Shown piece by piece: positions 4,175-17,689 of a stretch of DNA of 17,689 nucleotides. The position numbers were made by a program, and so were the translations under genes. Each line of letters opens with the position of its first letter. Position 1 is the first letter of the stretch. A model generated the notes under the pieces. It saw only the letters and a program-made list of their open reading frames with translations, was not told where the DNA came from and made no database searches. Source of the stretch: a virus (lineage: Duplodnaviria > Heunggongvirae > Uroviricota > Caudoviricetes); the IMG/VR virus record IMGVR_UViG_2526164690_000042. One strand, written 5' to 3'.

Positions 4175-4359
4175 TGCCAGCATCCTTTTTGTATCGGACG
4201 TAAACGGGCCAACATTGAAAGAATGCATATTTTATTTAATAGCTCCCGTTCGTGTTTTCTCTTGTTAATGGCATCTTCAGTAAATACAGGGTTACTGATA
4301 GTGACACCAATTTCAAAACAACCTTCAGACGTATTAACGTTTGGTAATAACGTTTTCAT
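4171..4359 (-). CDS. Small hypothetical protein (~62 aa), translationally coupled to the downstream small ORF
   Basis: The 97-aa track ORF 4171..4464 starts with GTG. The internal ATG at 4359 is preceded by GAGGG about 7 nt upstream, so it is the more plausible start. The product is basic (…KRKHERELLNK…). Confidence 0.35.
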   Translation of the reverse strand: MKTLLPNVNTSEGCFEIGVTISNPVFTEDAINKRKHERELLNKICILSMLARLRPIQKGCWQ

Positions 4360-4848
4360 TATCGCGCCCTCAACAATGAGTTTTGTGATGCGGTGCCTGG
4401 TGCCTCCAGGTGACGTTAACCAGTTAACAACTAACGCCGGATACAGAGAATCCAACCATAACACTGTTTTTGGTTTTAACTGTTCCGCGTGCGCTTAGCC
4501 GCATTCACCGCATCACAAAATTCACTTTAAAAAGGGCGGCAGAGCAGTCACGGAGTAAAACTGATACCGCCAAACGTCACCAGAAAATTGATAACAGAGG
4601 GCGTTGCAGCGGGGTTGTCACTTAAGCGTATGGTCAACCTGACAACCCGGTGTCCTCAACGGGGGAAGGAATAACCCCGCCATACTTACCGCCGCGCCAT
4701 TTCGCGGATTGCCACAACCAGAAGCGCACGGTCGAAGAAATTTAACGACAAGACTTATATGCAAAGGGATCTCGCCGTGCGCTTTCGTGTTATGCCCTGA
4801 CTTTTCAGGGTAAATTAACCTGTGGAAACCTGTTTTTACTGGCGCTAA

Positions 4849-5088
4849 TCAGTTAGCGTTTCTGGCTAACCAGCGATGCGCGGCAGCTTCGGTTTTAAAC
4901 GTTTTACTTTTGGTATACGTCATCGCGGTAAACGTGCCGTCCTGATTGGGAAACACGCCACATACCAGAGATTCGTTGTTGCCAAGCTCGATAGTATCCA
5001 TGCTGACCTCATTTCCCCTTAACGCTGGGGTAGCGGAACTAAAAACCTGCTGCGCTGTTATACAAAGTGTTCCCGCCGTCATGTTCAT
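4849..5088 (-). CDS. Hypothetical protein (79 aa), first gene downstream of the leftward PL-like promoter
   Basis: ORF begins about 95 bp downstream of the predicted leftward promoter at 5183..5211. The product is not arginine-rich, so it is unlikely to be an N-like antiterminator. Confidence 0.5.
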   Translation of the reverse strand: MNMTAGTLCITAQQVFSSATPALRGNEVSMDTIELGNNESLVCGVFPNQDGTFTAMTYTKSKTFKTEAAAHRWLARNAN

Positions 5089-5182
5089 ACGCCTCGGGCT
5101 GGCTACTTAATCCCTGACCACTGCCGGGTAACTCTAGGTATTGCCCTGTATTGTGTGGGACGGGATGGGTTGGTATGGGAAA

Positions 5183-5225
5183 ACTATAGGAAATGCCTAA
5201 TTTCTTGTCAATAGGCTATGCCTAA
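5183..5225 (-). promoter_or_regulatory. Leftward early promoter (PL-like) with overlapping operator (OL-like)
   Basis: Read on the minus strand: -35 TTGACA (plus 5206..5211), 17-nt spacer, -10 TATAGT (plus 5183..5188). The half-site pair ATAGGC-N3-GCCTAA at 5211..5225 abuts the -35. A 20-mer here (tgtcaataggctatgcctaa, 5206..5225) is the exact reverse complement of 5850..5869 on the other side of the repressor gene. Confidence 0.6.
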
Positions 5226-5319
5226 TGATTTGGGTGCGACCTAATAGGTGATGGTTTGTGGGAGAGGTAGTAGGAGTTAACTAACGGGAACTAGGAATTT
5301 CCCGTCGGACCATATAAGT

Positions 5320-5796
5320 TTAAGTTCCTGTCTTGGTGATGTTCTGGCTTTTCCGTTTTGATTCTTGATTTTTCAGATAGTTAGCTACCTTCATTTCCAT
5401 TGCGGCAATGTAGGCGCGAACGTCATGATCAACCCAACTAGGCTCCGTAGCATTTCCAGATAAGAGGAAAGCCACAATTGCTCTTTTTTCATCAGAGGCG
5501 GCTTGATAAAGGCTGTTTATGTCTAAAAGTTCACTTTTTGTATCTGAAGTGGATGGGGTTGGTATGGGGTATTCGTTAAGCCCCCAATGCTCTGGACCAA
5601 CCACATCAGAAAAGAAACGCCATAGTTCTGGAAGTTTGTCTTTACTTATCGAACCTTTCTTAATCCAGTCATGGATTGATGGTGGTTGGACTTTGAAATG
5701 ACGTGCGATTTCCGCCTTTGATTTGACGGCTCCTGATGCAATTTTTTTGTTAATGGCCTGCTCTATCGCTCGGCCTAAGTCTTTACCACTAAGCAT
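5320..5796 (-). CDS. racR: Prophage repressor, RacR-like (HTH, no LexA-type autocleavage domain apparent)
   Basis: 158-aa ORF transcribed divergently from the rightward early genes and flanked by operator/promoter modules. HTH-like segment KAEIARHFKVQPPSIHDWIKKG. An AGGAGA Shine-Dalgarno lies about 9 nt upstream. The sequence matches what I recall of E. coli Rac RacR, unverified. Confidence 0.75.
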   Translation of the reverse strand: MLSGKDLGRAIEQAINKKIASGAVKSKAEIARHFKVQPPSIHDWIKKGSISKDKLPELWRFFSDVVGPEHWGLNEYPIPTPSTSDTKSELLDINSLYQAASDEKRAIVAFLLSGNATEPSWVDHDVRAYIAAMEMKVANYLKNQESKRKSQNITKTGT

Positions 5797-5849
5797 TGCT
5801 TAATAGTCTCCTATGCGCATCGCGTTAGGCAATCCCTACTCTCGAAGCG

Positions 5850-5893
5850 TTAGGCATAGCCTATTGACAATCGCATTAGGCTAAGCCTAATAT
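5850..5893 (+). promoter_or_regulatory. Rightward early promoter (PR-like) with two palindromic operators (OR-like)
   Basis: -35 TTGACA at 5864..5869 and -10 TAATAT at 5888..5893 with an 18-nt spacer. Operators TTAGGC-ata-GCCTAT (5850..5864) and TTAGGC-taa-GCCTAA (5875..5889). An extra half-site TTAGGC lies at 5825..5830. Confidence 0.6.
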
Positions 5894-5920
5894 TATTGTG
5901 TGTTTTTTGGAGTTCATTCG

Positions 5921-6244
5921 ATGAAAAAAGATAACTATTCATTCAAACGAGCTTGTGCTGTTGTCGGTGGGCAATCAGCAATGGCTAGGCTTTTAGGTGT
6001 ATCTCCTCCAAGCGTAAATCAATGGATCAAAGGTGTACGTCAGTTGCCTGCTGAGAGATGTCCTGCGATTGAACGAGCAACAAAAGGTGGTGTCCTGTGT
6101 GAAGAACTTCGTCCTGATGTTGATTGGACATACTTACGACGCTCGTCATGTTATTCGCAGAATATGTCGATGAAGCAACCAAATGACGAAAACGATCATA
6201 CCCGAAGCATCAAGAGGCAAATGATTCATGAAAATCAAACATGA
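5921..6244 (+). CDS. ydaS: Cro/CI-type HTH regulator, YdaS-like
   Basis: ATG at 5921 has GGAG about 7 nt upstream (the track ORF begins earlier at 5900). HTH segment QSAMARLLGVSPPSVNQWIKG. First rightward gene, divergent from the repressor. Resembles Rac YdaS as recalled. Confidence 0.75.
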   Translation: MKKDNYSFKRACAVVGGQSAMARLLGVSPPSVNQWIKGVRQLPAERCPAIERATKGGVLCEELRPDVDWTYLRRSSCYSQNMSMKQPNDENDHTRSIKRQMIHENQT

Positions 6245-6653
6245 GCACATCCGCATGGCGATGAATGCCTGGGCATATCCTGATGGTGAGAAAGTTCCGG
6301 CAGCTGGAATAACCCAGGCTTATTTTGAGTTGGGTATGACGTTCCCAGAACTGTATGACGACAGCCATCCGGAAGCCCTGGCTCGCAATACCCAGAAAAT
6401 TTTCCGCTGGGTAGAGAAAGACACCCCTGATGCAGTTGAAAAAATTCAGGCGTTGTTACCAGCGATCGAAAAGGCAATGCCACCTTTGCTGGTGGCCAGA
6501 ATGCGCAGCCACAGTTCAGCTTATTTTCGGGAGCTGGTGGAGACGCGGGAGCGACTGGTGAGAGACGCTGATGATTTTGTCGCAGTGGCAATCGCCGGTT
6601 TCAATCAGATGAACCGTGGTGGCCCGGCAGGAAATGCTGTGGCAGTGCATTGA
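6228..6653 (+). CDS. ydaT: YdaT-like protein (reported as a toxin or CII-like regulator in Rac)
   Basis: 141-aa ORF overlapping the end of the YdaS-like gene. N-terminus MKIKHEHIRMAMNAWAYPDGEK… matches my recollection of Rac YdaT. Confidence 0.75.
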   Translation: MKIKHEHIRMAMNAWAYPDGEKVPAAGITQAYFELGMTFPELYDDSHPEALARNTQKIFRWVEKDTPDAVEKIQALLPAIEKAMPPLLVARMRSHSSAYFRELVETRERLVRDADDFVAVAIAGFNQMNRGGPAGNAVAVH

Positions 6654-6718
6654 GTGATAATAGCCATATCGAATCGCTTCCGGCAACTCGTGAGTAAAAA
6701 GATTCGGTATCAGAAGAG

Positions 6719-7795
6719 GTGAGTATGGCTAACGCCTGGCTCAGATTATGGCATGACATGCCAAATGACCCTAAGTGGCGAACAATTGCCAGGGTGTCAG
6801 GGCAGCCAATTGCAACAGTGATGGCAGTGTATATCCACCTCCTGGTGAGCGCGTCACGAAATGTCACGCGAGGTCACATTGATGTCACGACAGAAGATTT
6901 GGCAAGTGCGCTCGACGTGACAGAAGAGGTAATTGATTCAATTTTGCAGACGATGCAGGGGCGGGTACTTGATGGTGATTTAATCACTGGATGGGAAAAA
7001 CGCCAGGTGCTTAAAGAGGACAACGGCAATATTTCGCAAACCGCAAAATCTCCTGCAGAGCGCAAGAGGGCGCAGCGAGAGAGGGAAAGAAAGCGGGAAC
7101 AAAATGGCGATTGTCACGGCGCGTCACGAAATGTCACGCACATGTCACGACGAGTCACGACAGATAAAGATACAGATAAAGATACAGATCAAGAAGATCA
7201 AAACACTATGGTCCATGGCGTAAAAAACGCCACGAACCAGGCAGGGGATGTTCAGACCGTCAACCCTGGTCAGCCAGCAGGCACGACACCGGAAGCCGAT
7301 TCAGCGTATGCGCTGAAAGCCGATTCGGGCGCTGTGCAGCAGGTGATGACCGCAAGGCCGGAGCAATCACACCAACTGCAGCAGCCCGAAGCCGATTCCG
7401 CCATTCAGCGGGAAGCCGATCGGGTAGTCCCGGAAAACACCGGGCAGTCTGTGGGACGAGTGGATTATCCGGATGTGTTCGAACAGGTCTGGCGGGAATA
7501 CCCGTTGCGTGCTGGGGCAAACCCGAAGAAATCCGCTTTCAGTGCCTGGAAGGCCAGATTACGCGAGGGGGTGCCACCAGAGGCCATACTGGATGGTGTG
7601 AGGCGTTACGCAAGATACCTGGCGGCTACCGGGAAAACGGGAACGGAATTTGTTCAGCGAGCGACGACGTTTTTTGGGCCGGACCGGAATTTTGAAAACC
7701 CCTGGTTGCTCCCGGTAAGCGGCACGAACAACCAGCGTTGTGTGAATCATATTTCTGAACCGGATACCGAAATTCCGCCGGGATTCAGGGGGTGA
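6719..7795 (+). CDS. Replication initiator, lambda O-like/DUF1376-type (YdaU-like) with internal origin iterons
   Basis: 358-aa ORF directly upstream of a DnaC-like loader. Two clusters of GTCACG iterons lie inside the coding sequence and are followed by an AT-rich repeat. GTG at 6719; an alternative ATG at 6725 has a better-spaced Shine-Dalgarno. Confidence 0.8.
   Translation: MSMANAWLRLWHDMPNDPKWRTIARVSGQPIATVMAVYIHLLVSASRNVTRGHIDVTTEDLASALDVTEEVIDSILQTMQGRVLDGDLITGWEKRQVLKEDNGNISQTAKSPAERKRAQRERERKREQNGDCHGASRNVTHMSRRVTTDKDTDKDTDQEDQNTMVHGVKNATNQAGDVQTVNPGQPAGTTPEADSAYALKADSGAVQQVMTARPEQSHQLQQPEADSAIQREADRVVPENTGQSVGRVDYPDVFEQVWREYPLRAGANPKKSAFSAWKARLREGVPPEAILDGVRRYARYLAATGKTGTEFVQRATTFFGPDRNFENPWLLPVSGTNNQRCVNHISEPDTEIPPGFRG
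6851..6889. repeat. Iteron cluster 1 (4 GTCACG/GTCACA copies at ~10-bp spacing) inside the initiator gene
   Basis: gcGTCACGaaatGTCACGcgagGTCACAttgatGTCACGa. The 19-bp core gcgtcacgaaatgtcacgc recurs exactly at 7121..7139. Confidence 0.6.
7111..7205. repeat. Iteron cluster 2 plus AT-rich tandem repeat: putative replication origin
   Basis: Five GTCACG copies at 7113, 7123, 7133, 7144 and 7154 (helical phasing), followed by cagataaagatacagataaagatacagatcaagaagatcaaaac. The arrangement parallels the lambda ori inside gene O. Confidence 0.6.
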
Positions 7796-7801
7796 TGTGG
7801 C

Positions 7802-8548
7802 ATGAAAAACATTGCGGCAGCCGGGGTTCTTGAACGTATTCGCAGACTTGCACCACAGGCGTCGGTTCCACCGTACCGGACGGTGGAGGAGTGGCGGGAA
7901 TGGCAACTTGTTGAAGGACGAAAACGCAGCGAGGAGATTAACCGCCAGAATCACCAGTTGCGGGTGGAAAAAATCCTGAATCGTTCGGGCATCCAGCCTC
8001 TGCACAGCAAATGCTCGTTTGCGAATTATCAGGTGCAGAACGACGGGCAAAAATACGCGCTGAGCCAGGCCAAATCCATAGCTGACGAACTGATGACCGG
8101 GTGCACGAATTTTGTGTTCAGCGGTAAAACCGGCACCGGGAAAAATCACCTTGCAGCGGCGATGGGTAACCGGCTGATGGCGAAGGGGCGCAGCGTGATT
8201 ATCGTCACCGTGTCTGATGTCATGAGCGTGTTGCATGACAGCTACGACAACGGCAAATCCGGGGAAAAATTTTTACAGGAGCTTTGCAGTGTTGATTTGC
8301 TGGTCCTGGATGAAATAGGCGTTCAGCGGGAGACGAAAAACGAGCAGGTGGTATTACACCAGATAATTGATCGCCGGACAGCATCACTGTGCAGTGTCGG
8401 GATGTTAACAAACCTGAATCATGCCGCAATGAGTACACTTCTTGGTGAGAGGATTATGGACCGCATGACCATGAACGGTGGTCGATGGGTGACGTTTAAC
8501 TGGGATAGCTGGCGTCCAAATGTCAGCAATATGAGGGTTGTGAAGTAA
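7802..8548 (+). CDS. DnaC-like replicative helicase loader (AAA+ ATPase, IstB/DnaC family)
   Basis: Walker A FSGKTGTGKNHLAAA and Walker B DLLVLDEIG. It follows the initiator gene, as lambda P or a DnaC analogue would. Confidence 0.9.
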   Translation: MKNIAAAGVLERIRRLAPQASVPPYRTVEEWREWQLVEGRKRSEEINRQNHQLRVEKILNRSGIQPLHSKCSFANYQVQNDGQKYALSQAKSIADELMTGCTNFVFSGKTGTGKNHLAAAMGNRLMAKGRSVIIVTVSDVMSVLHDSYDNGKSGEKFLQELCSVDLLVLDEIGVQRETKNEQVVLHQIIDRRTASLCSVGMLTNLNHAAMSTLLGERIMDRMTMNGGRWVTFNWDSWRPNVSNMRVVK

Positions 8549-8569
8549 TTTTGTCCGGAGGAAATTTTA

Positions 8570-9331
8570 ATGGAAACCGTATCTGACGCACTGAAAGCAC
8601 TGAAAAAAGCCTCTTCACATGTGGTGGCAGCTCGCCTTGGAATCAGTCGTGAAGAGGCTGTCAACGAGCTGTGGGAACTCAAAAGAAATGGCGTCGTTGA
8701 TAAAACTGGTCACACCTGGTTTCTGGCTGGCGAAGGTGAATCCCGGGTAACCGAAGAGCGGCCAGTAAAATCTGAAGCACAGGATATGCTGACCGGGGAG
8801 GTCGAACAAAAAGTTACCGCAGACATGATGATTGAGTTTATCGGTCAGGATGGGGCTAAAACGTGTGAGGAACTGGCGGGTAAGTTCGGTGTCAGTACTC
8901 GCAAGGTTGCTTCCACGCTGGCGGTGGTAACCGCAACGGGGCGGCTGGCACGCGTTAATCAGAACGGTAAATTTCGTTACTGCATGCCGGGCGATAATTT
9001 ACCAGCAGAGCCGAAAGCCGCGCTGGTAACGGAAAGTGATGGTAAGGCCTTTCCTCAGCCAGCAGGTGCTGCGTTACCAGTCCGGGAAGCCGCAACACAG
9101 GAAGAAATTAAAACAGAAACTGTGGCGGACATTGTGCAGCCGTTGCCATCGTTTACCGAAACGCAAGCAGATGAGCTGATTTTTCCGTCCCTTCGCAGGG
9201 CAAACCTGGCGCTGCGCAGGGCGAAAAGTGATGTTCAGAAGTGGGAGCGAGTCTGCGCCGCGCTGCGGGAGCTGAACAAGTGCCGGGATATTCTCCGGGA
9301 TATTACCGCCACCAGAGAACAGCAGCGGTGA
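8570..9331 (+). CDS. Hypothetical phage protein with two winged-helix-like repeats (YdaW-like position)
   Basis: 253-aa ORF with GGAGGA Shine-Dalgarno. Internal duplicated segments ARLGISREEAVNELWELKRNGVVDKTGHTWFL and AGKFGVSTRKVASTLAVVTATGRLARVNQNGKFRY suggest tandem DNA-binding domains. Confidence 0.7.
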   Translation: METVSDALKALKKASSHVVAARLGISREEAVNELWELKRNGVVDKTGHTWFLAGEGESRVTEERPVKSEAQDMLTGEVEQKVTADMMIEFIGQDGAKTCEELAGKFGVSTRKVASTLAVVTATGRLARVNQNGKFRYCMPGDNLPAEPKAALVTESDGKAFPQPAGAALPVREAATQEEIKTETVADIVQPLPSFTETQADELIFPSLRRANLALRRAKSDVQKWERVCAALRELNKCRDILRDITATREQQR

Positions 9332-9363
9332 GTGGGTGGAAGACGTGGTGCCGGGCGGAAATC

Positions 9364-9645
9364 ATGATACTCCGGCAGTGTGCGGGAACGATGAAGGTAA
9401 AAAGCGTTGGCGCACTTATCGGACGAACTGAAGCGGCAGTGAGAACGAAGGCACGGGAGCTGGGCATCAGCATGATGTTACGTGGTGATTTTCACCCGTC
9501 GGCAAAATATTCTCAGCGTGATATTGAGCTGGCGCGGCAACTGCATCAGAGAGGCATGCAAAGAAGGGAAATTGCCAGAAAATTAGGCATGCCGCTGCGC
9601 ATAGTGAATAACTACGTTTATTTCGACAGGAGGGTGTCTGCGTGA
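9364..9645 (+). CDS. Small HTH-containing hypothetical protein
   Basis: The track ORF 9241..9645 overlaps the upstream gene; the first ATG past that gene's stop is at 9364. HTH-like segment MQRREIARKLGMPLRIVNNYV. The start is uncertain. Confidence 0.4.
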   Translation: MILRQCAGTMKVKSVGALIGRTEAAVRTKARELGISMMLRGDFHPSAKYSQRDIELARQLHQRGMQRREIARKLGMPLRIVNNYVYFDRRVSA

Positions 9646-9869
9646 AAATCCTGTATCAGGATTACGGCCCGGTGGGGCAGGTGGTTATCAGCAGTACTGT
9701 AATGGAGTTTCGGAAGCATAACCGTGTGGTGGATGCTGTGCTGTTAACCTGTCCGGGGATATCGGCGAGTCGTGCAGGTGTGTTTATTATGAAGACGAAA
9801 TTATATGGCAGTAAGGCGTGGATAAAGAAGGCGTATCGTGTAGCGTTGCAGGAGGTTAACAGTGAGTGA
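9642..9869 (+). CDS. Hypothetical small protein (75 aa)
   Basis: GTG start overlaps the stop of the upstream ORF (coupled). No recognisable motif. Confidence 0.35.
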   Translation: MKILYQDYGPVGQVVISSTVMEFRKHNRVVDAVLLTCPGISASRAGVFIMKTKLYGSKAWIKKAYRVALQEVNSE

Positions 9870-10197
9870 AATTAAAGAAATGCCGGTAGTTCGTGACGGA
9901 TATGGCAACTGGACACATCCTGAATATGAAAAATTCTGTGATGGTCGGGAATATATTTCAACGGAAGAGTTTAACGCCTGGATGGAGGAAAATAATCTTC
10001 AATACGTCCTCTGCTTCAGAGATGAAGGATGTGCTGACCTTGATGCGTGTGATGCTGATATTTCTGCATGGGAACCGGAACGACCAGAGGGCGATGGCTG
10101 GTTTATTGGTTCCATTCATGATACGGAAGATGGCCCGGTTGTGTCTGGTTGCGAAATAAGGCTGAAGCATAAAGGCGATAAACCAACTAACAACTAA
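9862..10197 (+). CDS. Hypothetical acidic phage protein (111 aa)
   Basis: ORF in series with neighbours on the same strand. Acidic and Cys-containing (…CFRDEGCADLDACDADISAWEPERPEGDGW…). Confidence 0.5.
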   Translation: MSEIKEMPVVRDGYGNWTHPEYEKFCDGREYISTEEFNAWMEENNLQYVLCFRDEGCADLDACDADISAWEPERPEGDGWFIGSIHDTEDGPVVSGCEIRLKHKGDKPTNN

Positions 10198-10299
10198 ATA
10201 CTGAAGATTTAAATCAGAAACGATTTTTATTAAATCCTTAACCGGAGGGATTCCTGCACCCTCAGAACATCAGGAGGCCGCCCGAAAGGGCGGTAAGAA

Positions 10300-10518
10300 A
10301 TGAAACATTATTTAGAAAAAAATTACCCACGAAAGAGCAGAGCAACAGAGTTTCTGTTTTTCATTCTGTTTATAGTGTTGATGATACCGATATCCCCGCT
10401 ATTACTGGTCTGGATAATTGGAAGGACATTTGAACCAGTTATTGAGCTATATACCGATGTGACATGGGAATCATTCAGCGCACTGCACAATAAAATTAAT
10501 CCGTATAAGGAAAACTGA
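10300..10518 (+). CDS. Small membrane protein (72 aa, one transmembrane segment)
   Basis: Hydrophobic stretch FLFFILFIVLMIPISPLLLVWIIG. Its stop is 1 nt before the start of the DUF551 gene. Confidence 0.5.
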   Translation: MKHYLEKNYPRKSRATEFLFFILFIVLMIPISPLLLVWIIGRTFEPVIELYTDVTWESFSALHNKINPYKEN

Positions 10519-10519
10519 T

Positions 10520-11077
10520 ATGAGCACTATTACCAGAGAACGCGCGGAGATTAAATCATACATCACAGGCTTCCTGAGCGACTCGGCGCACGATAACAAG
10601 TCTTCAGACAGCCTGCTGGCTAATGTGTTTCGTATCGCGCTGGCATCACTGGAAGCAGAGCCGATAGCAATGGTAGTGCCTGATGAAATGGATTTGCTTA
10701 CCTGCCATCTCGACGGTGTAACTAAAACATATGCTGATGGCTGGAACGCCTGCCGCGTCGCCATGCTTCAGGCCGGAAACTTTCGGGAAAATAAGAATTC
10801 GTCAACCAACAATTTTCGGGAAATCTCGGAAACGTCAACCAGATCTCCGATAACTCTGGATGGCTGGATAAGCTGTACTGAGCGAATGCCTGAAAAGAGC
10901 CAGAACGTGCTTATTTCGATGAATATCGATAGCGAGGCTGGGCCATTAATATATTCCGCACGCTATCTCGGAGGCACGTTCCGGCGCGGAGGTATAGCAG
11001 TTAGTCCGGGTAATGATCTTAGGCAAGCAACCCACTGGATGTCGCTACCAGAACCGCCGCAGGAGGTGAATCAATGA
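10520..11077 (+). CDS. DUF551-domain phage protein
   Basis: C-terminal segment DGWISCTERMPEKSQNVLIS…ATHWMSLPEPP resembles the DUF551 signature as I recall it. Confidence 0.75.
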   Translation: MSTITRERAEIKSYITGFLSDSAHDNKSSDSLLANVFRIALASLEAEPIAMVVPDEMDLLTCHLDGVTKTYADGWNACRVAMLQAGNFRENKNSSTNNFREISETSTRSPITLDGWISCTERMPEKSQNVLISMNIDSEAGPLIYSARYLGGTFRRGGIAVSPGNDLRQATHWMSLPEPPQEVNQ

Positions 11078-11367
11078 CCTGGCCTGAAGCATTCACAACG
11101 GTAGGAATTGCGATGGCGGTGGCGCTGGTGGTGTATTCGATTTGCCACTGGGGATAAAAACGGTTTGCGGGAAAAGGATAGTTAAGTAGAATTGCTGCGG
11201 GTGCTTGAGGCTATCTGCCTCGGGCATGAACACCAACGGCAGATAGAGAAAAGCCCCAGTTAACATTACGCGTCCTGCAAGACGCTTAACATTAATCTGA
11301 GGCTCAATCCATGCTGAACACATGTAGGTTAGCCTCTTACGTGCCGAAAGGCAAGGAGAAGCAGGCT

Positions 11368-11523
11368 ATGAAGCAGCAAAAGGCGATGTTAATCGCCCTG
11401 ATCGTCATCTGTTTAACCGTCATAGTGACGGCACTGGTAACGAGGAAAGACCTCTGCGAGGTGCGAATCCGAACCGGTCAGACGGAGGTCGCTGTCTTCG
11501 TAGACTACGAATCTGAGAAGTAA
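11368..11523 (+). CDS. hok: Hok/Gef-family type I toxin (51 aa membrane peptide)
   Basis: MKQQKAMLIALIVICLTVIVTALVTRKDLCEVRIRTGQTEVAVFVDYESEK parallels Hok (…[37 protein letters not shown]). AAGGAG Shine-Dalgarno upstream. The track ORF starts in frame at 11311, which may be a mok-like leader. Confidence 0.85.
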   Translation: MKQQKAMLIALIVICLTVIVTALVTRKDLCEVRIRTGQTEVAVFVDYESEK

Positions 11524-11642
11524 GAGACCAGGCGGGGGAGTAATCTCCCGCCACCTCTGATGTGTCAGGCATCCTCAACGCACCCGCGCTTTACCATACT
11601 GAAAATGCTGTTTGAATGTTCATCTCTGAAAGAGGACTATGA

Positions 11643-11987
11643 ATGAAAAAGGTATTGATTGCAGCACTTATTTCCGGTGTGTCTTTTGGCGCTTTTGCAC
11701 AGCAGGGTGGTTTCCAGGGGCCAGAAGCAGAGCGTTCAACAGTAGCGCAGGCAAAAGAACTGAAGGATGATGCATGGGTTATCCTTGAAGGGAGCATCGT
11801 TAAAAAAGTGGGTGATGAACGTTATGAGTTTCGTGACAATAGCGGGACAATTGTCACGGATATTGATGACAGCGTATGGGCCGGGCAGAATGTTTCTCCG
11901 AAAGACAAAGTAAGAATTGAGGGTGAAATTGATAAAGACCTGAGCAGTGTTGAAGTTGATGTAAAGGCACTGAAATTATTAAAGTAA
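11643..11987 (+). CDS. Periplasmic OB-fold protein of the YgiW/YdeI (BOF) family
   Basis: Signal peptide MKKVLIAALISGVSFGAFA, then a ~95-aa domain resembling YgiW-family stress proteins. Own Shine-Dalgarno (AGAGGA) and a downstream intrinsic terminator. Confidence 0.8.
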   Translation: MKKVLIAALISGVSFGAFAQQGGFQGPEAERSTVAQAKELKDDAWVILEGSIVKKVGDERYEFRDNSGTIVTDIDDSVWAGQNVSPKDKVRIEGEIDKDLSSVEVDVKALKLLK

Positions 11988-12005
11988 CCGCCCCTGCTTG
12001 TTAAG

Positions 12006-12032
12006 CCCGTCTTACTGACGGGTTTTCTGTTT
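12006..12032 (+). terminator. Rho-independent terminator after the BOF-family gene
   Basis: cccgtc-ttact-gacggg hairpin followed by ttttctgttt. Confidence 0.6.
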
Positions 12033-12059
12033 GTACATTCCGGCGTATTGCCTTACAAT
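12031..12059 (+). promoter_or_regulatory. Candidate sigma70 promoter for the downstream DUF968/RusA/Q genes
   Basis: TTGTAC, ~17-nt spacer, TACAAT (12054..12059), about 50 bp upstream of the next ORF. Confidence 0.35.
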
Positions 12060-12108
12060 TCGCGCAGTCAGCCTGAACAACTGACACCTGCTGTCACCGG
12101 AGAATCCG

Positions 12109-12381
12109 ATGACACAACACATAAAATCCCACAATTCTGAAGCCGACCCGGAAATTAAGCAGGGGAGGCGTTTTCGTGCGCCTCAGTATGGCTGGTTTCA
12201 CTATCTGTTCTGTACGATCGATGAGGCAGATATGCTTCAAGAGGCGTATCTGCGTCGCGGTGTCCGTGTGGAGCGGAGTCTGAACGCTGATCGTCTGACC
12301 TGGACCGTTTCTGTATATCTTCCTGTTCGTGCACATCTGCCACGGACACATGCCTGCTACCGTCAGCGCGTCTGGAGGTAA
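12109..12381 (+). CDS. Hypothetical protein (90 aa) preceding the DUF968 gene
   Basis: ATG with GGAG Shine-Dalgarno about 7 nt upstream. It overlaps the DUF968 ORF start by about 50 nt in a different frame, so it may be a separate small gene or a frameshifted N-terminus. Confidence 0.4.
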   Translation: MTQHIKSHNSEADPEIKQGRRFRAPQYGWFHYLFCTIDEADMLQEAYLRRGVRVERSLNADRLTWTVSVYLPVRAHLPRTHACYRQRVWR

Positions 12382-13432
12382 TGTGCGGGTATTACTTCGA
12401 CCTGTTCTGGTTCCGGAACTCGGGCTGGTGGTCCTTAAGCCCGGTCGTGAATCATTGCCAGTTTTTCATCGCGGCAGGGTGCTGGTGGAGCCGGAACCGA
12501 AAAACATGCGGGCGCTGCCATCTGGAGCGGTTCCTACTGTTCGCCAGCCGCTGGCGGAAGATAAATCACTGCTGCCATTTTTCAGCGATGAGCGGGTGAT
12601 TCGTGCAGCTGGCGGCGCTGGTGCACTGTCTGACTGGTTATTACGTCACGTGAAATCCTGCCAGTGGCCACACGGCGATTATCATCACAGCGAAACCGTT
12701 ATTCACAGTTACGGTGCTGGCGCAATGGTGTTGTGCTGGCACTGCGACAACCAGCTGCGCGACCAGACCTCCGAATCACTTGAGCAACTTACTCAACAAA
12801 ATCTGACAGCCTGGATGATTGACGTCATACGCCATGTAATGAATGGCACGCAGGAGCGGGAATTATCGCTGGCTGAATTATCCTGGTGGGCAGTCTGCAA
12901 TCAGGTGGTGGACGCATTACCTGAGGCAGTATCGCGTCGCTCTCTGGGATTACCGGCGGAAAAAATCCGCTCCGTATACCGTGAAAGCGGCATCATACCG
13001 GGAGAACAGACCGCCACCAGCATACTGAAGCAGCGCACAAAAAATATTGCGCTACCGCCTCACACCCACCAGCAACAGAACCCACCACAGGAAAAGACGG
13101 TGGTCAGCATTGCCGTTGATCCGGAGTCTCCGGAATCCTTCATGAAACGACCTAAACGTCGCCGCTGGGTAAATGAGAAATACACACGCTGGGTAAAGAC
13201 ACAGCCGTGTGCGTGTTGTGGTAAGCCAGCGGACGATCCTCATCATCTGATTGGTCATGGTCAGGGTGGAATGGGAACAAAATCCCACGATATTTTCACG
13301 CTACCGCTGTGTCGGGAGCATCACAACGAGCTTCATGCGGATCCGCTGGCGTTCGAAGAAAAGCATGGTTCCCAGGTTGATTTAATTTTTCGTTTTCTTG
13401 ATCACGCCTTTGCAACCGGCGTGCTCGGGTAA
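12329..13432 (+). CDS. DUF968-family phage protein with C-terminal HNH-like Cys/His motif
   Basis: C-terminus …TQPCACCGKPADDPHHLIGHG…LPLCREHHNELH…. It sits immediately upstream of rusA and Q, as DUF968 genes do in lambdoid nin regions. Start is GTG at 12329 or ATG at 12350. Confidence 0.7.
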   Translation: MHICHGHMPATVSASGGNVRVLLRPVLVPELGLVVLKPGRESLPVFHRGRVLVEPEPKNMRALPSGAVPTVRQPLAEDKSLLPFFSDERVIRAAGGAGALSDWLLRHVKSCQWPHGDYHHSETVIHSYGAGAMVLCWHCDNQLRDQTSESLEQLTQQNLTAWMIDVIRHVMNGTQERELSLAELSWWAVCNQVVDALPEAVSRRSLGLPAEKIRSVYRESGIIPGEQTATSILKQRTKNIALPPHTHQQQNPPQEKTVVSIAVDPESPESFMKRPKRRRWVNEKYTRWVKTQPCACCGKPADDPHHLIGHGQGGMGTKSHDIFTLPLCREHHNELHADPLAFEEKHGSQVDLIFRFLDHAFATGVLG

Positions 13433-13444
13433 AAGAGGTTACTG

Positions 13445-13819
13445 ATGCGTATAGAGTTTGTTTTGCTTTACCCGCCGACGGTGAACACCTACTGGCGACG
13501 TCGTGGCAGCACATATTTTGTATCAAAAGCCGGTGAGCGTTATCGCCGGGCTGTGGCGCTTATTGTTCGCCAGCAGCGGCTGAAATTAAGCCTGTCCGGA
13601 AGGCTGGCGATAAAGATTATTGCCGAGCCACCGGATAAGCGCCGCCGTGACCTGGACAATATTCTGAAAGCGCCGCTGGATGCGCTGACGCATGCGGGGT
13701 TGCTAATGGACGACGAGCAGTTTGATGAAATCAATATCGTTCGTGCTCAGCCAGTATCTGGTGGACGTCTGGGGGTGAAGATTTACCCCATAATGCTTGA
13801 AGGGCAGGTCAAAAAATGA
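13445..13819 (+). CDS. rusA: Holliday junction resolvase RusA
   Basis: 124-aa protein with the RusA-like acidic catalytic region …PPDKRRRDLDNILKAPLDALTHAGLLMDDEQ…, at the canonical nin-region position just before Q. Confidence 0.9.
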   Translation: MRIEFVLLYPPTVNTYWRRRGSTYFVSKAGERYRRAVALIVRQQRLKLSLSGRLAIKIIAEPPDKRRRDLDNILKAPLDALTHAGLLMDDEQFDEINIVRAQPVSGGRLGVKIYPIMLEGQVKK

Positions 13820-14637
13820 AACTGGAAGATTTACCGAAATACTACTCCCCAAAATCCCCCGGCCTGACTGATGCATCGGCCTCAACGTCGAAAGATACGC
13901 TGAGTATCACTGATGTGATGGCCGCGCAGGGCATGACACAGAATTGGGCTGAGATGGGGTTTTCTGCGTTCCTTGGGAAAATGGGCATTAGTATGAATGA
14001 CAGAGAGCGGGCAACAGAATTGTTGACAGAATATGCACTCAGTCGGTGTGATCGCGTGGCGGCGTTAAGAAAACTCCCGGCAGAAATAAAACCGGCAGTG
14101 ATGCGTATTATGGCTTCGTATGCGTTTGAAGATTATGCCCGTAGCGCGGCGAGCAAAAAACAGTGCCCCTGTTGTCACGGAAAAAAATTTATTGAAAGCG
14201 AGGTTTTTACAAACAAGATCCAGTATCCGGATGGTAAGCCGCCAGTGTGGGCAAAGTGCACAAAAGGCGTGTATCCGTCTTACTGGGAGGAATGGAAAAA
14301 AGTCAGGGAGGTGGTAAAAGTTGCCTGTCCGGAGTGTGGAGGGAAGGGGGAGGTTTCCACCGCCTGTAAAGATTGTCGTGGGCGCGGTGTTGCCATTCAT
14401 CGTGAAGAGTCGGTAAAACGTGGTATGCCTGTTATCAGAGACTGCCAGCGTTGTGGTGGTCGTGGCTATGAAAGATTACCTTCAACGGAGGCATTTAATG
14501 CCATATGTAATGTGACCGATGCCATATCTCTTGATACATGGAAAAAAACAGTTAAACGTTTTTACGATACGCTGGTGGTGCAGTTTGATATTGAAGAAGC
14601 ATGGGCAGAACAACAACTGAAAAAGGTGACCAGATAG
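13816..14637 (+). CDS. Q: Late-gene antiterminator Q (zinc-finger type)
   Basis: 273-aa Cys-rich protein (CPCCHGK…CPECGGKG…CKDCRGRG…CQRCGGRG). ATGA overlap with rusA. A PR'/qut-like sequence and terminator follow immediately. Confidence 0.8.
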   Translation: MKLEDLPKYYSPKSPGLTDASASTSKDTLSITDVMAAQGMTQNWAEMGFSAFLGKMGISMNDRERATELLTEYALSRCDRVAALRKLPAEIKPAVMRIMASYAFEDYARSAASKKQCPCCHGKKFIESEVFTNKIQYPDGKPPVWAKCTKGVYPSYWEEWKKVREVVKVACPECGGKGEVSTACKDCRGRGVAIHREESVKRGMPVIRDCQRCGGRGYERLPSTEAFNAICNVTDAISLDTWKKTVKRFYDTLVVQFDIEEAWAEQQLKKVTR

Positions 14638-14642
14638 CTTTG

Positions 14643-14676
14643 TTGATTTTTCCCGAATCTGTGGTAAATTTGCCCT
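14643..14676 (+). promoter_or_regulatory. Late promoter PR' with qut-like initial transcribed region
   Basis: -35 TTGATT (14643..14648), 16-nt spacer, extended -10 TGgTAAATT (14662..14670). The downstream sequence taaatttgccctaacgatgggcg resembles lambda PR' as I recall it (taaatttgactcaacgatgggtt). Confidence 0.55.
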
Positions 14677-14717
14677 AACGATGGGCGTTTTATGCCTGAC
14701 GTTAGAAGAATTTCTGC

Positions 14718-14742
14718 AACCCGCCGCCGAGCGGGTTTTTTA
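14718..14742 (+). terminator. Intrinsic terminator downstream of PR' (tR'-like, target of Q antitermination)
   Basis: aacccgc-cgccga-gcgggtt hairpin followed by tttttta. Confidence 0.65.
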
Positions 14743-14781
14743 TTGTCGGAATTAATTACGGACCGTTATTATCCGGCTCCC

Positions 14782-14857
14782 GGCCCTTTAGCTCAGTGGT
14801 GAGAGCGAGCGACTCATAATCGCCAGGTCGCTGGTTCAAATCCAGCAAGGGCCACCA
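14782..14857 (+). tRNA. tRNA with CAU anticodon; ileX/ileZ-like (tRNA-Ile2, lysidine-type) rather than tRNA-Met
   Basis: Cloverleaf readable by eye: acceptor GGCCCTT/AAGGGCC, D-arm GCTC…GAGC, anticodon loop CTCATAA, T-arm GCTGG-TTCAAAT-CCAGC, 3' ACCA. Overall sequence is close to what I recall of E. coli ileX. Confidence 0.85.
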
Positions 14858-14967
14858 TCACAAACCGCCATTAGCTTATCAGGAAGAGCAGACGACACCA
14901 TAACAGGGTTGTTGGTGCGGGGGCGGGTCCCCGATGGCGGTCCATTATCGGTATTCTGCGTTGTTAG

Positions 14968-15044
14968 CTCAGCCGGACAGAGCAATTGCCTTCTAAGCAA
15001 TCGGTCAGTGGTTCGACTCCACTACAACGCGCCACACTTATTTT
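14968..15044 (+). tRNA. tRNA-Arg (anticodon UCU, reads AGA/AGG)
   Basis: Acceptor GCGTTGT/ACAACGC, D-arm GCTC…GAGC, anticodon stem ATTGC/GCAAT with loop CTTCTAA, T-arm AGTGG-TTCGACT-CCACT, 3' GCCA. Confidence 0.85.
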
Positions 15045-15056
15045 CCAGGCTCGCTT

Positions 15057-15082
15057 CGGCGGGCCTTTTTTGTATCTGCGCA
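15057..15082 (+). terminator. Intrinsic terminator after the tRNA pair
   Basis: aggctcgc-ttcg-gcgggcct stem with one mismatch and a UUCG-type tetraloop, followed by ttttttg. Confidence 0.5.
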
Positions 15083-15204
15083 CGCCCGGCGCATATCAAC
15101 CACAGAGTCCGTTTCGGGGGTGAGCTTACGGAGTGGTCAGTGTGACTTTCTCTGTGGGCAGATCGCTCCCGGGCGTTGGCTCACCCACCCAAAGGAACGT
15201 CACG

Positions 15205-15636
15205 ATGTTTAGAATCTTCAAAAAGAAAACCCGCAGAGCGGCAGCGGAAATTAAAAAGTTTGAGAAACGCGATCTGGCACAGGCGGTGATTAACGCTGCA
15301 TACCTGGTGGCCTATGCAGATGGTGAATGCGAGGCATCCGAGAAAGCGAAGATCGAACAGGTCTTACGTAATCAGCCTGCGTTGTCTGCGTTTACCTCGG
15401 AAATTAATGCGATTAGCGCAACTATTATCGGTCAGCTGGATACCAATTTTAAAATTGGTCGTCGTGCCGCGTTACGCGAGATTGAGGATGTGAAACACGA
15501 TACGCGTGAAGCGGAAGATGTGCTGGATGTGGCGGTGGCCATTGCGGAGGCAGACGGCGAAATTGAGCCGGAAGAGCGCAAGGTGCTGGAAGAGATTGCC
15601 GGTGTTCTGGGTCTTCGTCTGGAGAATCACCTGTGA
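15205..15636 (+). CDS. TerB-like (tellurite-resistance TerB family) protein
   Basis: ATG at 15205 with AAAGGA Shine-Dalgarno (the track ORF begins with GTG at 15133). Acidic helical protein with TerB-like features (…DLAQAVINAAYLVAYADGECEASEKAKIEQVL… and …DVLDVAVAIAEADGEIEPEERKVLEEIAGVLGL…). Confidence 0.75.
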   Translation: MFRIFKKKTRRAAAEIKKFEKRDLAQAVINAAYLVAYADGECEASEKAKIEQVLRNQPALSAFTSEINAISATIIGQLDTNFKIGRRAALREIEDVKHDTREAEDVLDVAVAIAEADGEIEPEERKVLEEIAGVLGLRLENHL

Positions 15637-15884
15637 CGGTAAAACTGCGCCTGGCTGTGGCTGCACTCCTGCTGTTTCTGGTGGTGATGGTGGATTTCAC
15701 CAGCAGAATCATGTCGGTGCTGGCGGATGGGGTGCTGGTCTGCGGCATTGTGGTATTGCTGTGGCCGGTGATAAAAAGAACAGCCTGCATAATGCTTGAT
15801 TTTTTTGTTTACTGTTTATTAAAAATACTACTGCATGGTGAATCCCCCTGTGCGGAGGGGCAATCAGCAACCAGGTATATGTGA
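15633..15884 (+). CDS. Small hydrophobic membrane protein coupled to the TerB-like gene
   Basis: GTG start overlaps the TerB-like stop. Two hydrophobic segments (LAVAALLLFLVVMV and GVLVCGIVVLLWPVI). The C-terminal end and exact start are uncertain. Confidence 0.4.
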   Translation: MTVKLRLAVAALLLFLVVMVDFTSRIMSVLADGVLVCGIVVLLWPVIKRTACIMLDFFVYCLLKILLHGESPCAEGQSATRYM

Positions 15885-15966
15885 TAATCGCGGATTCAGG
15901 TGCTGATACTGAATTCACCGGGAGGCACCCGGCACCATGCAAGAAAAAGAATGTGCATGCAAACAT

Positions 15967-15990
15967 GCCCCTCTCCGGAGGGGCTTTTTT
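15967..15990 (+). terminator. Intrinsic terminator (plus strand) ending the TerB-like/membrane unit
   Basis: gcccctc-tccg-gaggggc hairpin followed by tttttt. Confidence 0.6.
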
Positions 15991-15995
15991 ATGGG

Positions 15996-16021
15996 TAAAA
16001 AATGCCCGAATGGGTTCGGGC
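15996..16021 (-). terminator. Candidate minus-strand intrinsic terminator, convergent with the previous one
   Basis: Plus strand aaaaaat-gcccgaa-tggg-ttcgggc. On the minus strand this is a 7-bp hairpin followed by a T-run. Confidence 0.4.
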
Positions 16022-16117
16022 AATAGCATGAGATACTGATATTGTTGTGTTGTTATCGTGTGGATTTTAACCAGGGTTTATCAGGCTGCGCAACTGCGTG
16101 GCCTTTTTTCATTTCTT

Positions 16118-16162
16118 GGGCTGTAGTCCCCGTGTGTCATTCAGGCTTCCGGACTACAGCCC
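16118..16162. repeat. Perfect 12-bp inverted repeat with 21-nt spacer
   Basis: gggctgtagtcc (16118..16129) and ggactacagccc (16151..16162). Not followed by a T-run on either strand, so it is not a typical terminator. It lies between the converging terminators and the second integrase gene. Confidence 0.5.
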
Positions 16163-16205
16163 ACTCCATATCTGATTTAATACACTATCCCGGCCGGGAG
16201 GAATA

Positions 16206-16460
16206 ATGACATTTAAACATTATGATGTTGTCAGGGCGGCGTCGCCGTCAGACCTTGCGGAAAAGCTGACACACAAACTGAAAGAGGGCTGGCAGCCGTT
16301 TGGTAGACCGAAGAAAACAAATAAAATCAGTGTAATACGTGAAATTGCTGAAAAGTTAATCAAATTTAACACCAAGAAAAATCAAGGTATTAGGAAGTTG
16401 CTCATAGCTAGTATACCAAGTCTTTTTGCCAGAAATTTTTCTGGATTGTCTACTTGCTAA
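16206..16460 (+). CDS. DUF1737-like small phage protein, probably with an altered or chimeric C-terminus
   Basis: The N-terminus MTFKHYDVVRAASPSDLAEKLTHKLKEGWQPFG resembles a small conserved late-region protein of lambdoid phages as I recall it. The remaining ~50 aa are Lys-rich, and the stop overlaps the 3' end of the convergent integrase gene. Confidence 0.4.
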   Translation: MTFKHYDVVRAASPSDLAEKLTHKLKEGWQPFGRPKKTNKISVIREIAEKLIKFNTKKNQGIRKLLIASIPSLFARNFSGLSTC

Positions 16461-17469
16461 CCACGAGCGGCAAATCCAGTGTTGGTGTGATTTTTGTTTT
16501 ACGATCGTAAATCAACACCTGATTTTCTGTTTTATGCCCGCTGAAAATTTGTTTGTCGCGACTGCTGCCTTCGTAATCTGAGATCCCCTTGGCTTTTATG
16601 TCGTGAAAATTGCACCCGAACGGAACGCCAACTTTTTGCTCGGCTGCGCGTTTAGCCTGATTCCACCAGTTATTCAGCGTTTTAGCTATGACTTTCCCGC
16701 CTTTGGTTGTATTGATCACATATTCGCATGTACAGGAAGATACATTTCGGGCTAACTGGATCGCTGTACGTAATCGCGGTGACCATTCCTTGATTTGTTT
16801 GGTGCCGGTTTTGTTTTGCTCAATGTAGATCCCTTTATCCATAATATCCTGCCATTTCAACTCAAGCACATCACCGAGTCTTGCCGCACAGAGATAGGAA
16901 ATCTCCATTGCAATGCGTAACTGTGGAATTGCTTCCGCATATATCGCCGCATACTGTTCATCGGTGATGTAAACAGTGCGGGCTTTAAGAGAGAATTTTC
17001 TGACTCCTTTGCATGGGTTATTCTTCACATACCCACGCTCATATCCCCACCCGTATACTCGACTCAGGCTTGCCAGTTCATGATTTGCCTGGGTCTTGCT
17101 CTCAAGCCCTCGTTTATCCATGAAAATTCTTACCTGCTCAGTTTTGACATTATCAGCAAGCACTTTTCCGAATACCATCAGCAACGCCTTCTGATGTTGT
17201 CGATAATCTTTTTGGGTTCGGGGGGCCAGTTCTGTAAATGCAGGGGAGTCCATAAACATGTGCCATAATTTAGCTACGGTCATTATGTTGTGGAGTTTTG
17301 CTTTTTCCAGTTCATAATTTTGCCAGACTTTAGCTACGCTGGTTTTCCGCACTCTTCCTAGCCCTATACTTCTTGTACTTCCTTCGGGTTTCCACACGTA
17401 ACTGTAACCATTCGATCTAACCCGCGGTGGCAGTACATTATCTTTTTTATTTTTTCTTGGTCTTCCCAT
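16450..17469 (-). CDS. int: Second tyrosine integrase (phage integrase family), unrelated in sequence to the first
   Basis: 339-aa ORF with a C-terminal catalytic region (…RLGDVLELKWQDI…, …FHDIKAKGISDY…, …GHKTENQVLIYDRK…) carrying R, H-x-x-(R/K) and Tyr positions. An excisionase-like ORF overlaps its start. Confidence 0.85.
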   Translation of the reverse strand: MGRPRKNKKDNVLPPRVRSNGYSYVWKPEGSTRSIGLGRVRKTSVAKVWQNYELEKAKLHNIMTVAKLWHMFMDSPAFTELAPRTQKDYRQHQKALLMVFGKVLADNVKTEQVRIFMDKRGLESKTQANHELASLSRVYGWGYERGYVKNNPCKGVRKFSLKARTVYITDEQYAAIYAEAIPQLRIAMEISYLCAARLGDVLELKWQDIMDKGIYIEQNKTGTKQIKEWSPRLRTAIQLARNVSSCTCEYVINTTKGGKVIAKTLNNWWNQAKRAAEQKVGVPFGCNFHDIKAKGISDYEGSSRDKQIFSGHKTENQVLIYDRKTKITPTLDLPLVVSK

Positions 17470-17689
17470 TGTTCAGCGCCTCAAAATCGGGTTCAGCAGA
17501 AACCAGTTCAGATGTTTTTGGCATCGTTGTCAGACCGTGTGGAATATCCCTGCGGAGAACTATGGGTTCGTTTTTAGGGCCGATTACAAATGGGATGCCG
17601 TGCAGTCTTAACTGGTGTTGCTGTTTTGTGTATCGCTCGTATTTCGTGATCTCTTTAATCTCTGCTGGAGATAGAGTTAATTCGTACAT
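17447..17689 (-). CDS. xis: Excisionase-like protein of the second element
   Basis: 80-aa ORF overlapping the start of the second integrase. It begins MYELTLSP…, similar to lambda Xis MYLTLQEW…. The start codon is the last three bases of the window. Confidence 0.6.
   Translation of the reverse strand: MYELTLSPAEIKEITKYERYTKQQHQLRLHGIPFVIGPKNEPIVLRRDIPHGLTTMPKTSELVSAEPDFEALNNGKTKKK

Follow-up and report, generated by a model that had tools for sequence, protein, structure and literature searches.

A tciA-tciB Cassette Encoding a TerB-Family Protein and a Small Membrane Protein Occupies the Shiga Toxin Gene Slot of a Defective Prophage

The IMG/VR virus record IMGVR_UViG_2526164690_000042 is a 17,689-nt stretch of caudovirus DNA, to which we refer in full as the window. 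On its plus strand lies a two-gene cassette, tciA (15205-15636) followed by tciB (15633-15884), at the position that the Shiga toxin genes stx2AB hold in related phages. Both the identity of the cassette and its placement in the stx slot are, in our judgment, practically certain. An earlier prediction, made from the letters of the window and hereafter called the original prediction, presented the pair as an unrecognized unit; in fact, tciA and tciB have carried these names since the annotation of the phage P1 genome, and the pair is annotated in RefSeq and PHROGs. In RefSeq, the Escherichia coli copies, that of strain RM8385 among them, appear as "tellurite resistance TerB family protein" (TciA) and "DUF3927 family protein" (TciB).

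The open reading frame (ORF) at 15133-15636 has a convincing start at ATG 15205, with the Shine-Dalgarno sequence AAGGAA (15192-15197) 7 nt before it, and encodes from there a cytoplasmic TerB-fold protein of 143 residues. Residues 26-138 of TciA match the Pfam family TerB (PF05099) with 60.2 bits (cut-off 24.4, expectation value (E) 2.9e-16), and the protein also matches phrog_632 of PHROGs, "tellurite resistance" (E 6e-69), and the solved structure of Klebsiella TerB, 2jxu (E 4.9e-8). An AlphaFold model made with 37 homologues is all-helical with seven helices (predicted local distance difference test score 85.8; predicted template modeling score (pTM) 0.80). When this model was submitted to Foldseek, the top matches in the Protein Data Bank were the TerB-like structures 2h5n (probability 1.0, TM score 0.55-0.64) and 2ou3, with E-values that are weak (0.025-2) despite the probability of 1.0 and that denote a modest likeness. 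Two copies of an acidic ADG...E motif are present, YADGECEASE and EADGEIEPEE, both of which align with their counterparts in 2jxu; across alignments of 16 and 37 sequences, D117, G118, E46, and E124 are invariant, and D39 and G40 are nearly so. These results show that TciA is a TerB-fold protein that keeps both acidic motifs, which are predicted to form a metal site. The N-terminus is hydrophobic and then basic, and sub-threshold matches were found to the TerB-like part of DjlA and to DUF533/YebE. The gene is intact in the window, its product is found in identical form on 70 contigs, and the ratio of nonsynonymous to synonymous substitution rates (dN/dS) is 0.05 when the window is compared with lambdoid phage JLK-2012.

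The start codon of tciB, GTG 15633, overlaps the tciA stop codon, TGA 15634-15636, in a GTGA arrangement (-4 nt), and GGAG stands 8 nt before it. The same -4 overlap is retained in 80 of 80 closely related viral loci and is therefore not due to chance. TciB matches the Pfam family DUF3927 (PF13064) with 57.9 bits (cut-off 25, E 1e-15) and phrog_1470 of PHROGs, "TciB-like" (E 1e-27). By hydropathy, the protein contains a pair of hydrophobic stretches and has basic residues at either end. Comparison of the window with P1, CharmingMan, FSL SP-076, and Pollock gives 54-67% identity for TciB, whereas TciA is only 31-43% identical, and the TciB motifs DFTS and LADG are conserved, with D21, F22, D32, and G38 invariant and G33 nearly so. 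The dN/dS of tciB (window versus JLK-2012) is 0.26. This degree of conservation and the retention of the motifs would be difficult to explain if the gene were not translated, so that tciB is probably translated; on sequence comparison, it is shown to be a conserved, selected coding gene for a hydrophobic protein predicted to have about 54 residues. Two claims of the original prediction, a 143-residue TerB-like protein and its GTGA coupling to a small membrane protein, are thus borne out.

The window carries an unusual tciB allele. Relative to RM8385 and JLK-2012, one A is missing in GAAAC near 15779 (15778-15781), which alters the last six residues of TciB and lengthens the protein from 55 to 83 residues, past the canonical stop that would lie at 15797-15799 and into the gene for the small RNA (sRNA) STnc100. 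The usual size is 51-55 residues, as found in 67 of the 72 loci measured among 80 related viral loci, and the exact 83-residue form is recorded once, in E. coli DEC8C. As the frameshift falls within a short run of A residues, it may be either an error of sequencing or a real mutation. The conserved residues 1-49 are spared in either case. A search among 1.84 billion sequences returned 61 representatives of DUF3927 at E up to 0.001, nearly all of them short, stand-alone proteins, mostly of 39-87 residues; the 83-residue window allele departs from the norm of roughly 50-55 residues. Three candidate natural fusions of TciA and TciB, P0004, P0065 (TerB plus DUF3927), and P0286 (176 residues), were rejected as frameshifted or chimeric ORF calls.

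The P1 pair (AF234172, 70233-70822) is the closest named relative of the cassette, and its identity to the window proteins is 41-42% for TciA and 54% for TciB. In both, a TerB-family protein of 141-143 residues is directly followed by a DUF3927 protein of about 54 residues, the stop codon of the first gene touches or overlaps the start codon of the second (-1 in P1, -4 in the window), and the genes lie among tRNA genes in an operon subject to repression in the lysogen (as predicted for the window). P1 differs in having a third gene, tciC, of 35 residues, for which no counterpart was found among the ORFs after tciB in the window. The P1 operon is under C1 and Pban, in contrast to Q and PR' in the window, and the frameshift in tciB is a further difference of the window copy. 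Homologues of TciA were found by tblastn in 130 phage genome records. Among 5426 complete E. coli genomes, 800 (∼15%) contain the pair at a coverage of at least 80%, and the 1145 E. coli genomes with any tciAB match have it at a median of 4 places per genome and a maximum of 10. In JLK-2012, the gene order is Q, tRNAs, tciA, tciB, DUF1737/nanS, S, R, and Rz. A functional tie between tciAB and tRNA genes was considered and set aside: the two are neighbors in lambdoid phages, P1, and an Erwinia jumbo phage, but of 14 diverse phages inspected only 4 show the association, and we treat this proximity as a shared accessory-island location.

We then compared 320 TciA-like loci, taken from five scans of viral contigs and from annotated phages and falling into 23 clusters at ∼70% TciA identity; because each scan contributed its best 80 loci, this sample is biased. 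A match to the TciB hidden Markov model lies downstream of tciA in 296 of the 320 loci. In 14 of the 23 clusters, a TciB-type ORF begins between -17 and +4 nt from the tciA stop, and two of the 296 loci have it at +70. An unrelated single-pass membrane protein of 67-73 residues takes its place in four clusters and in some loci of a fifth, its gene mostly joined to tciA by an ATGA overlap (for example, L087:2432-2653, L093:2943-3146, and loci L250, L290, L296, and L297). This alternative partner, which occurs in several Pseudomonas-type phages, is phrog_27356 of PHROGs and contains two cysteines and a CxWYGYQTER...VGCMV motif; it had no match in Pfam. One further cluster has a 26-residue hydrophobic transmembrane peptide next to TciA, and in another cluster, with Vibrio phage D520 (L089:2999-4081), a Na/Ca exchanger gene (PF01699, 1.4e-27) lies 69 nt past the TciA-like gene. 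In the N4-like Vibrio phage BUCT194 (L096:1-2926), genes for TerD, TerB, and TerC/Alx directly precede the TciA-like gene. One cluster of 9 loci holds truncated tciA pseudogenes, and Pseudomonas phage Cygsa01 is the sole case without a membrane neighbor. Within the loci compared, TciA is shown by gene order to be nearly always followed directly by a small membrane protein, across unrelated phages. The carriers span P1, lambdoid, N4-like, and jumbo phages, with hosts in Enterobacterales, Pseudomonas, and Vibrio, and they include virulent phages, namely, Erwinia jumbo phages, N4-like Salmonella and Escherichia phages (PMC3728262), and Pseudomonas phage Zuri.

The placement of the cassette in the window was established by comparison with Stx2 phage 24B, in which the Shiga toxin (Stx) genes occupy the corresponding site. 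Positions 14741-15081 of the window align by blastn with the tRNA promoter and tRNA genes of phage 24B and with the hairpin annotated there as "terminator upstream of the Stx-genes", and 15815-16306 align with the 24B segment that runs from past stx2B to the DUF1737 gene. The 733 bp between these flanks (15082-15814), comprising the leader, tciA, and tciB, stand in place of stx2AB, with the left edge of the slot at 15081/15082; what the window has in common with Stx phages in this region is confined to the flanks. The window thus has the order known for the PR' moron slot of lambdoid prophages in enterohemorrhagic E. coli (EHEC): Q, PR'/tR', tRNAs, a terminator, a cargo coding sequence, convergent sRNA genes (one of STnc100 type and one anti-sRNA of AgvB/AsxR type), and DUF1737/nanS-p. 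The arrangement of a moron coding sequence after PR' and then convergent sRNAs was described for the Sakai prophages by Tree et al. 2014 (PMC4104026), and in Stx2 phages STnc100 is located 75 nt past stx2B (PMC12370729). The window differs from the stx2AB version in its cargo, which is tciAB in place of a toxin; the product is predicted to be retained in the cell at the inner membrane and has no known effect on the host animal. At the same slot of phage vB_EcoS-813R8 (L005:1861-1977), we observed a tciB fragment only, directly after a tRNA, together with a gene for an IraM-like anti-adapter on the other strand; the fragment shows that cargo turns over at the slot.

From Q to the cassette, the features described here are on the plus strand. 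The antiterminator gene Q (13816-14637) is intact and encodes 273 residues with a Pfam Antiterm match (PF03589, E 4.7e-50), in agreement with the RefSeq label of its RM8385 homologue, antitermination protein. A DnaJ-like CXXCXGXG zinc-finger segment precedes the Antiterm domain (sub-threshold match to Pfam DnaJ_CXXCXGXG, E 4e-7). The late-promoter leader (14638-14745) contains two hairpins found by terminator scan, at 14671-14687 and 14718-14737, as equivalents of tR'; from position, we infer that PR' is present as well, and phage 24B is annotated at the equivalent place with pR', qut, and two terminators. A promoter-like site, TTGTCG-18-TATTAT (14743-14772), aligns with the "pT putative tRNA promoter" of phage 24B. 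It is followed by a tRNA with a CAT anticodon (14782-14857), called Met by ARAGORN and annotated as tRNA-Ile (ileX-like) in the RefSeq homologue, and by tRNA-Arg (TCT) at 14958-15034. The first of these is 86% identical to the trnI region of P1, where trnI comes after tciC. The 100-nt spacer between the two tRNAs (14858-14957) aligns with the middle tRNA-Arg(TCG) of phage 24B and of many related loci; ARAGORN calls no tRNA within it, and from the alignment it looks like a decayed third tRNA. A hairpin at 15047-15066 with a T-run to 15076, resembling an intrinsic terminator (8-bp stem, 6 GC pairs), aligns with the 24B terminator named above. The cassette leader (15082-15204) has no significant RNA structure (fold z-score -1.05), and a search of it with Rfam for an RNA element, comparable to the Mn riboswitch found ahead of TerC genes, returned nothing at E up to 1.

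Downstream, the STnc100 gene (15807-15996, plus strand; Rfam RF02076, 147.8 bits versus a gathering threshold of 47, E 2e-34) begins 8 nt past the canonical tciB stop. Of the 67 related loci whose sequence extends far enough, 59 have STnc100 after tciB, mostly within a few nt, and copies of STnc100 are transcribed in uninduced EDL933 (PMC5331693). We noted a near-consensus promoter-like pair, TTGATT (15796-15801) and TAAAAT (15821-15826), which overlaps the canonical tciB stop, has a 19-nt spacer that is longer than usual, and lies just before the most conserved part of STnc100 (from ∼15833); this candidate promoter could explain STnc100 transcription in uninduced lysogens. Convergent with STnc100 is the gene for the anti-GcvB sRNA AgvB (15997-16058, minus strand; RF02702, 96.5 bits versus 56), which matches the Rfam consensus at 62 of 62 positions and whose anti-GcvB function was demonstrated by Tree et al. 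2014 (PMC4104026). A further terminator-like hairpin (16083-16104, plus strand; 9-bp stem and T-run) stands between AgvB and the DUF1737 gene and is conserved in JLK-2012. The only Rfam match that overlaps it is a weak OmrA-B-like one (E 0.49); the hairpin might terminate another sRNA, perhaps one related to PasA/PasC, sRNAs for which TerB is listed as a conserved neighboring gene in a preprint of 2026.

These flanking features settle several points of the original prediction at once. The location downstream of Q, the tR' hairpins, and the tRNAs is as it stated. The interval 15133-15990, described there as a two-gene unit with its own terminator, does hold tciA and tciB, but it also takes in a third gene, STnc100, and the supposed terminator at 15967-15984 is the 3' end of that sRNA. 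The moron slot, said to lie ahead of the lysis genes, is indeed of the stx type, with flanks that align to phage 24B, but no lysis genes follow it in the window, because the prophage is truncated at 16310.

The truncation is evident from the DUF1737 gene of nanS-p type (16206-16310, plus strand), of which a 5' fragment is present: it is cut after ∼35 codons, the Pfam DUF1737 match (4e-13) covers residues 3-38 only, and RefSeq describes it as "incomplete, missing C-terminus". Homology to intact phages in blastn also ends at 16310, which marks the end of a defective prophage that starts with int (1-1119) and continues through replication genes, hok/sok, DUF968, RusA, and Q. Neither lysis genes nor structural genes were found in 1-16310. 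The hok/sok toxin-antitoxin locus is on the plus strand (11199-11373 and 11368-11523; Rfam sok, 113.5 bits; the Hok/Gef coding sequence by comparison with RM8385), and a gene for the sRNA DicF is on the minus strand (4534-4585, 76.7 bits). Beyond the junction, which is the same in RM8385, comes a second, Qin-like prophage (16450-17689), with int at 16450-17469 on the minus strand and a DUF4224-type excisionase gene.

The state of this prophage raises the question of whether the window copy of the cassette is a decaying, functionless remnant, with the sRNAs and tRNAs being the elements under selection. The prophage spans only int to the cut DUF1737 gene, the tciB deletion changes the TciB C-terminus in an allele recorded once, nine related loci have truncated tciA pseudogenes, and one phage has kept a tciB fragment only. 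Against this stand an intact Q, an intact tciA with an identical product on 70 contigs, and a frameshift that leaves residues 1-49 of TciB untouched and, sitting in a short A-run, could be an artifact of sequencing. Purifying selection acts on the family at large. The remnant explanation concerns the window copy alone, and even for that copy we consider it unlikely.

With regard to expression, a promoter scan of the leader at 15082-15204 found no sigma-70-like site between the post-tRNA terminator and tciA, from which tciAB would be expected to be expressed by Q-dependent read-through, as stx2 is; the stx2 genes are co-transcribed with the late genes in Stx phages (PMC8065619). In P1, tciA and tciB belong to the C1-operator-controlled ban operon. 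Taken together, the negative promoter scan, the C1 control of the P1 pair, and the carriage of the pair by virulent phages point to synthesis in the lytic phase, which, given a simple consensus scan and genomic context, we hold to be rather probable.

The comparison with known TerB systems suggests what such a module may do. The TerB of the ter operon (terZABCDEF) belongs to the same Pfam family as TciA, is all-helical, and has the same duplicated ADG...E motifs; it differs in that TciA has low identity to 2jxu and in that tciA is phage-borne rather than located in a ter island. TerB works with the membrane protein TerC, whereas the partner in the window has ∼54 residues and is unrelated to TerC, and no genes for TerC, TerD, TerZ, TerA, or TerE were found among the window ORFs or in the Pfam scans. 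The TerC-TerB complex, the holding of TerB at the membrane by TerC, and the phage and colicin phenotypes of ter have been reported (PMC12054061), and TerB has been described as amphitropic or membrane-associated in the papers on the defense systems Bunzi and Shango (Millman et al.) and Dionysus. DjlA and YebE (DUF533) likewise have a TerB-like domain at the cytoplasmic face of the inner membrane, where TciA may be tethered too; their transmembrane segment is in cis, and DjlA adds a J domain, whereas that of TciA would be supplied by a separate, coupled ORF.

On this basis, we propose that tciAB is a membrane-tethered TerB module made in lytic growth, a reading in which confidence and doubt are evenly balanced. 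TciA and TciB would be co-translated from the late transcript that Q antiterminates, and would hence be made while the phage grows lytically but not in a quiescent lysogen. At the inner membrane, TciA would be tethered or partnered on the cytoplasmic side by TciB or an analogue of it, so that TciAB would amount to a split version of the membrane-anchored DjlA/YebE or of the TerB-TerC complex. The complex would bind a divalent cation and buffer or sense inner-membrane or ion stress in the infected cell, and the benefits could match those known for ter, namely, resistance to superinfecting phage and to colicins that form pores. The character of the TciA N-terminus and the small membrane partner suggest, by analogy, that the TerB domain is held at the inner membrane. 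The neighboring TerC, TerD, and Ca exchanger genes in other phages, considered together with the ter phenotypes, hint at the handling of divalent cations or membrane stress; a membrane-stress role of tciAB, which would hold by analogy, is tentative, and we lean somewhat away from it. In the present window, the frameshifted tciB and the defective prophage mean that the module may be crippled.

Several observations weigh against this proposal. AlphaFold predicts TciB as one continuous helix (residues 2-48, pTM 0.34) with a low-confidence frameshift tail, so that the two-helix membrane protein of the original prediction is matched by the two hydropathy stretches but not by the model. TciB also has few cytoplasmic residues, and a contact surface for TciA is hard to place. 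The likeness of the TciA model to its Foldseek matches is modest, and the sample of loci that gave the partner pattern is biased. The case for late-only expression draws on a simple consensus scan, and the transcription of STnc100 in uninduced cells means that some local transcription exists. According to the GenBank notes, the P1 tci genes were named "by homology" only, and all three were non-essential in a CRISPR interference knock-down of P1 (PMC10695390), which fits any accessory role. Literature searches on TciA/TciB, DUF3927, and TerB with prophage brought up papers on the ter operon or on replication termini and no phenotype or expression study of the pair.

The original prediction had regarded the pair as a candidate abortive-infection or superinfection-exclusion module. 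As a lysogenic-conversion defense, TciA would survey the membrane, TciB would be its effector or anchor, and the lysogen would abort or exclude infecting phages. Validated defense systems do contain TerB-domain proteins: Bunzi and Shango (Millman et al.) and Dionysus (DinA/DinB/DinC), in which a TerB-like protein is combined with a MAEBL/transmembrane protein and a four-transmembrane pore-forming toxin. In all three, as in tciAB, a TerB-like gene is next to membrane-protein genes, and TerB has been proposed to act in membrane surveillance. The ter operon and terC lower phage growth (PMC12054061), the retention of the cassette in defective prophages at up to 10 places per EHEC genome would fit a benefit to the host, and the neighboring sRNA genes are expressed in lysogens. 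However, these systems are host-encoded and constitutively protective, whereas tciAB is also carried by strictly virulent phages, in which a lysogen defense would be meaningless. Dionysus has three genes as opposed to two in the window, where, going by its description, the four-transmembrane protein, the MAEBL domain, and hence its third components are lacking. In PADLOC-DB 2.0, which includes Bunzi, Shango, and TerY-P, TciA matched only PDC-S48 (E 0.0035, over 35 residues) and TciB had no match at E up to 1. The scan also found no promoter-like site belonging to the cassette, which comes immediately after a strong terminator, and the P1 pair is in a repressor-controlled lytic operon. A defense role is thus plausible in kind but not favored by the context; we found no support for it here and judge it improbable.

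A further alternative is counter-defense or takeover, in which tciAB would interfere in lytic growth with membrane-based immunity of the host, through TerB mimicry or membrane stabilization; its targets could be Ter-dependent phage inhibition or membrane-depolarizing abortive-infection effectors. This explanation accommodates the presence of the pair in virulent as well as temperate phages of Enterobacterales, Pseudomonas, and Vibrio, the lytic-phase expression implied by its position, and the limitation of phage growth by the host ter operon, and a TciB more conserved than TciA is what would be expected if TciB touched a conserved membrane component of the host. Against it, the TerD, TerB, and TerC genes beside the TciA-like gene of BUCT194 suggest the import of Ter functions rather than their blocking. 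The tci genes of P1 are moreover dispensable on the laboratory host, although that host is without ter. We consider counter-defense quite unlikely. Lysis timing, with TciB as a holin- or antiholin-like protein that under TciA regulation tunes membrane energization and holin triggering, is very unlikely. In its favor, the size and two predicted hydrophobic segments of TciB are typical of small phage membrane proteins, and the lambdoid tciB lies in the late operon a few genes before S-R-Rz; but lambdoid carriers have a separate holin, the pair is not beside lysis genes in P1, N4-like, and jumbo phages, and stx and other cargo use the same slot, so that position by itself says little.

Our results establish tciAB as a common non-toxin occupant of the stx slot and as a conserved module of a TerB protein and a membrane protein. 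It fills the position of the Shiga toxin genes in related phages, often in several prophages of one EHEC strain. Two points of annotation follow: the "tellurite resistance" label on tci genes of phages reflects homology alone, and the "terminator" after tciB belongs to the sRNA STnc100. A broader proposition, which we advance as doubtful, is that TciA and a small membrane partner (TciB, the CxWYGYQTER family, or a cation exchanger) constitute a widespread module of lytic infection that senses or resets the state of the inner membrane or of divalent cations. If that were true, tciAB would be the cargo that in EHEC most often replaces Shiga toxin at this late-operon slot, and, in one version, a phage-side counterpart of host TerB "membrane surveillance", serving as a counter-defense or as a lytic-phase exclusion device. 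A growing number of anti-phage systems are seen to include TerB domains as membrane-associated components, and a minimal two-gene phage version, kept from P1 to N4-like and jumbo phages, would offer a tractable entry point.

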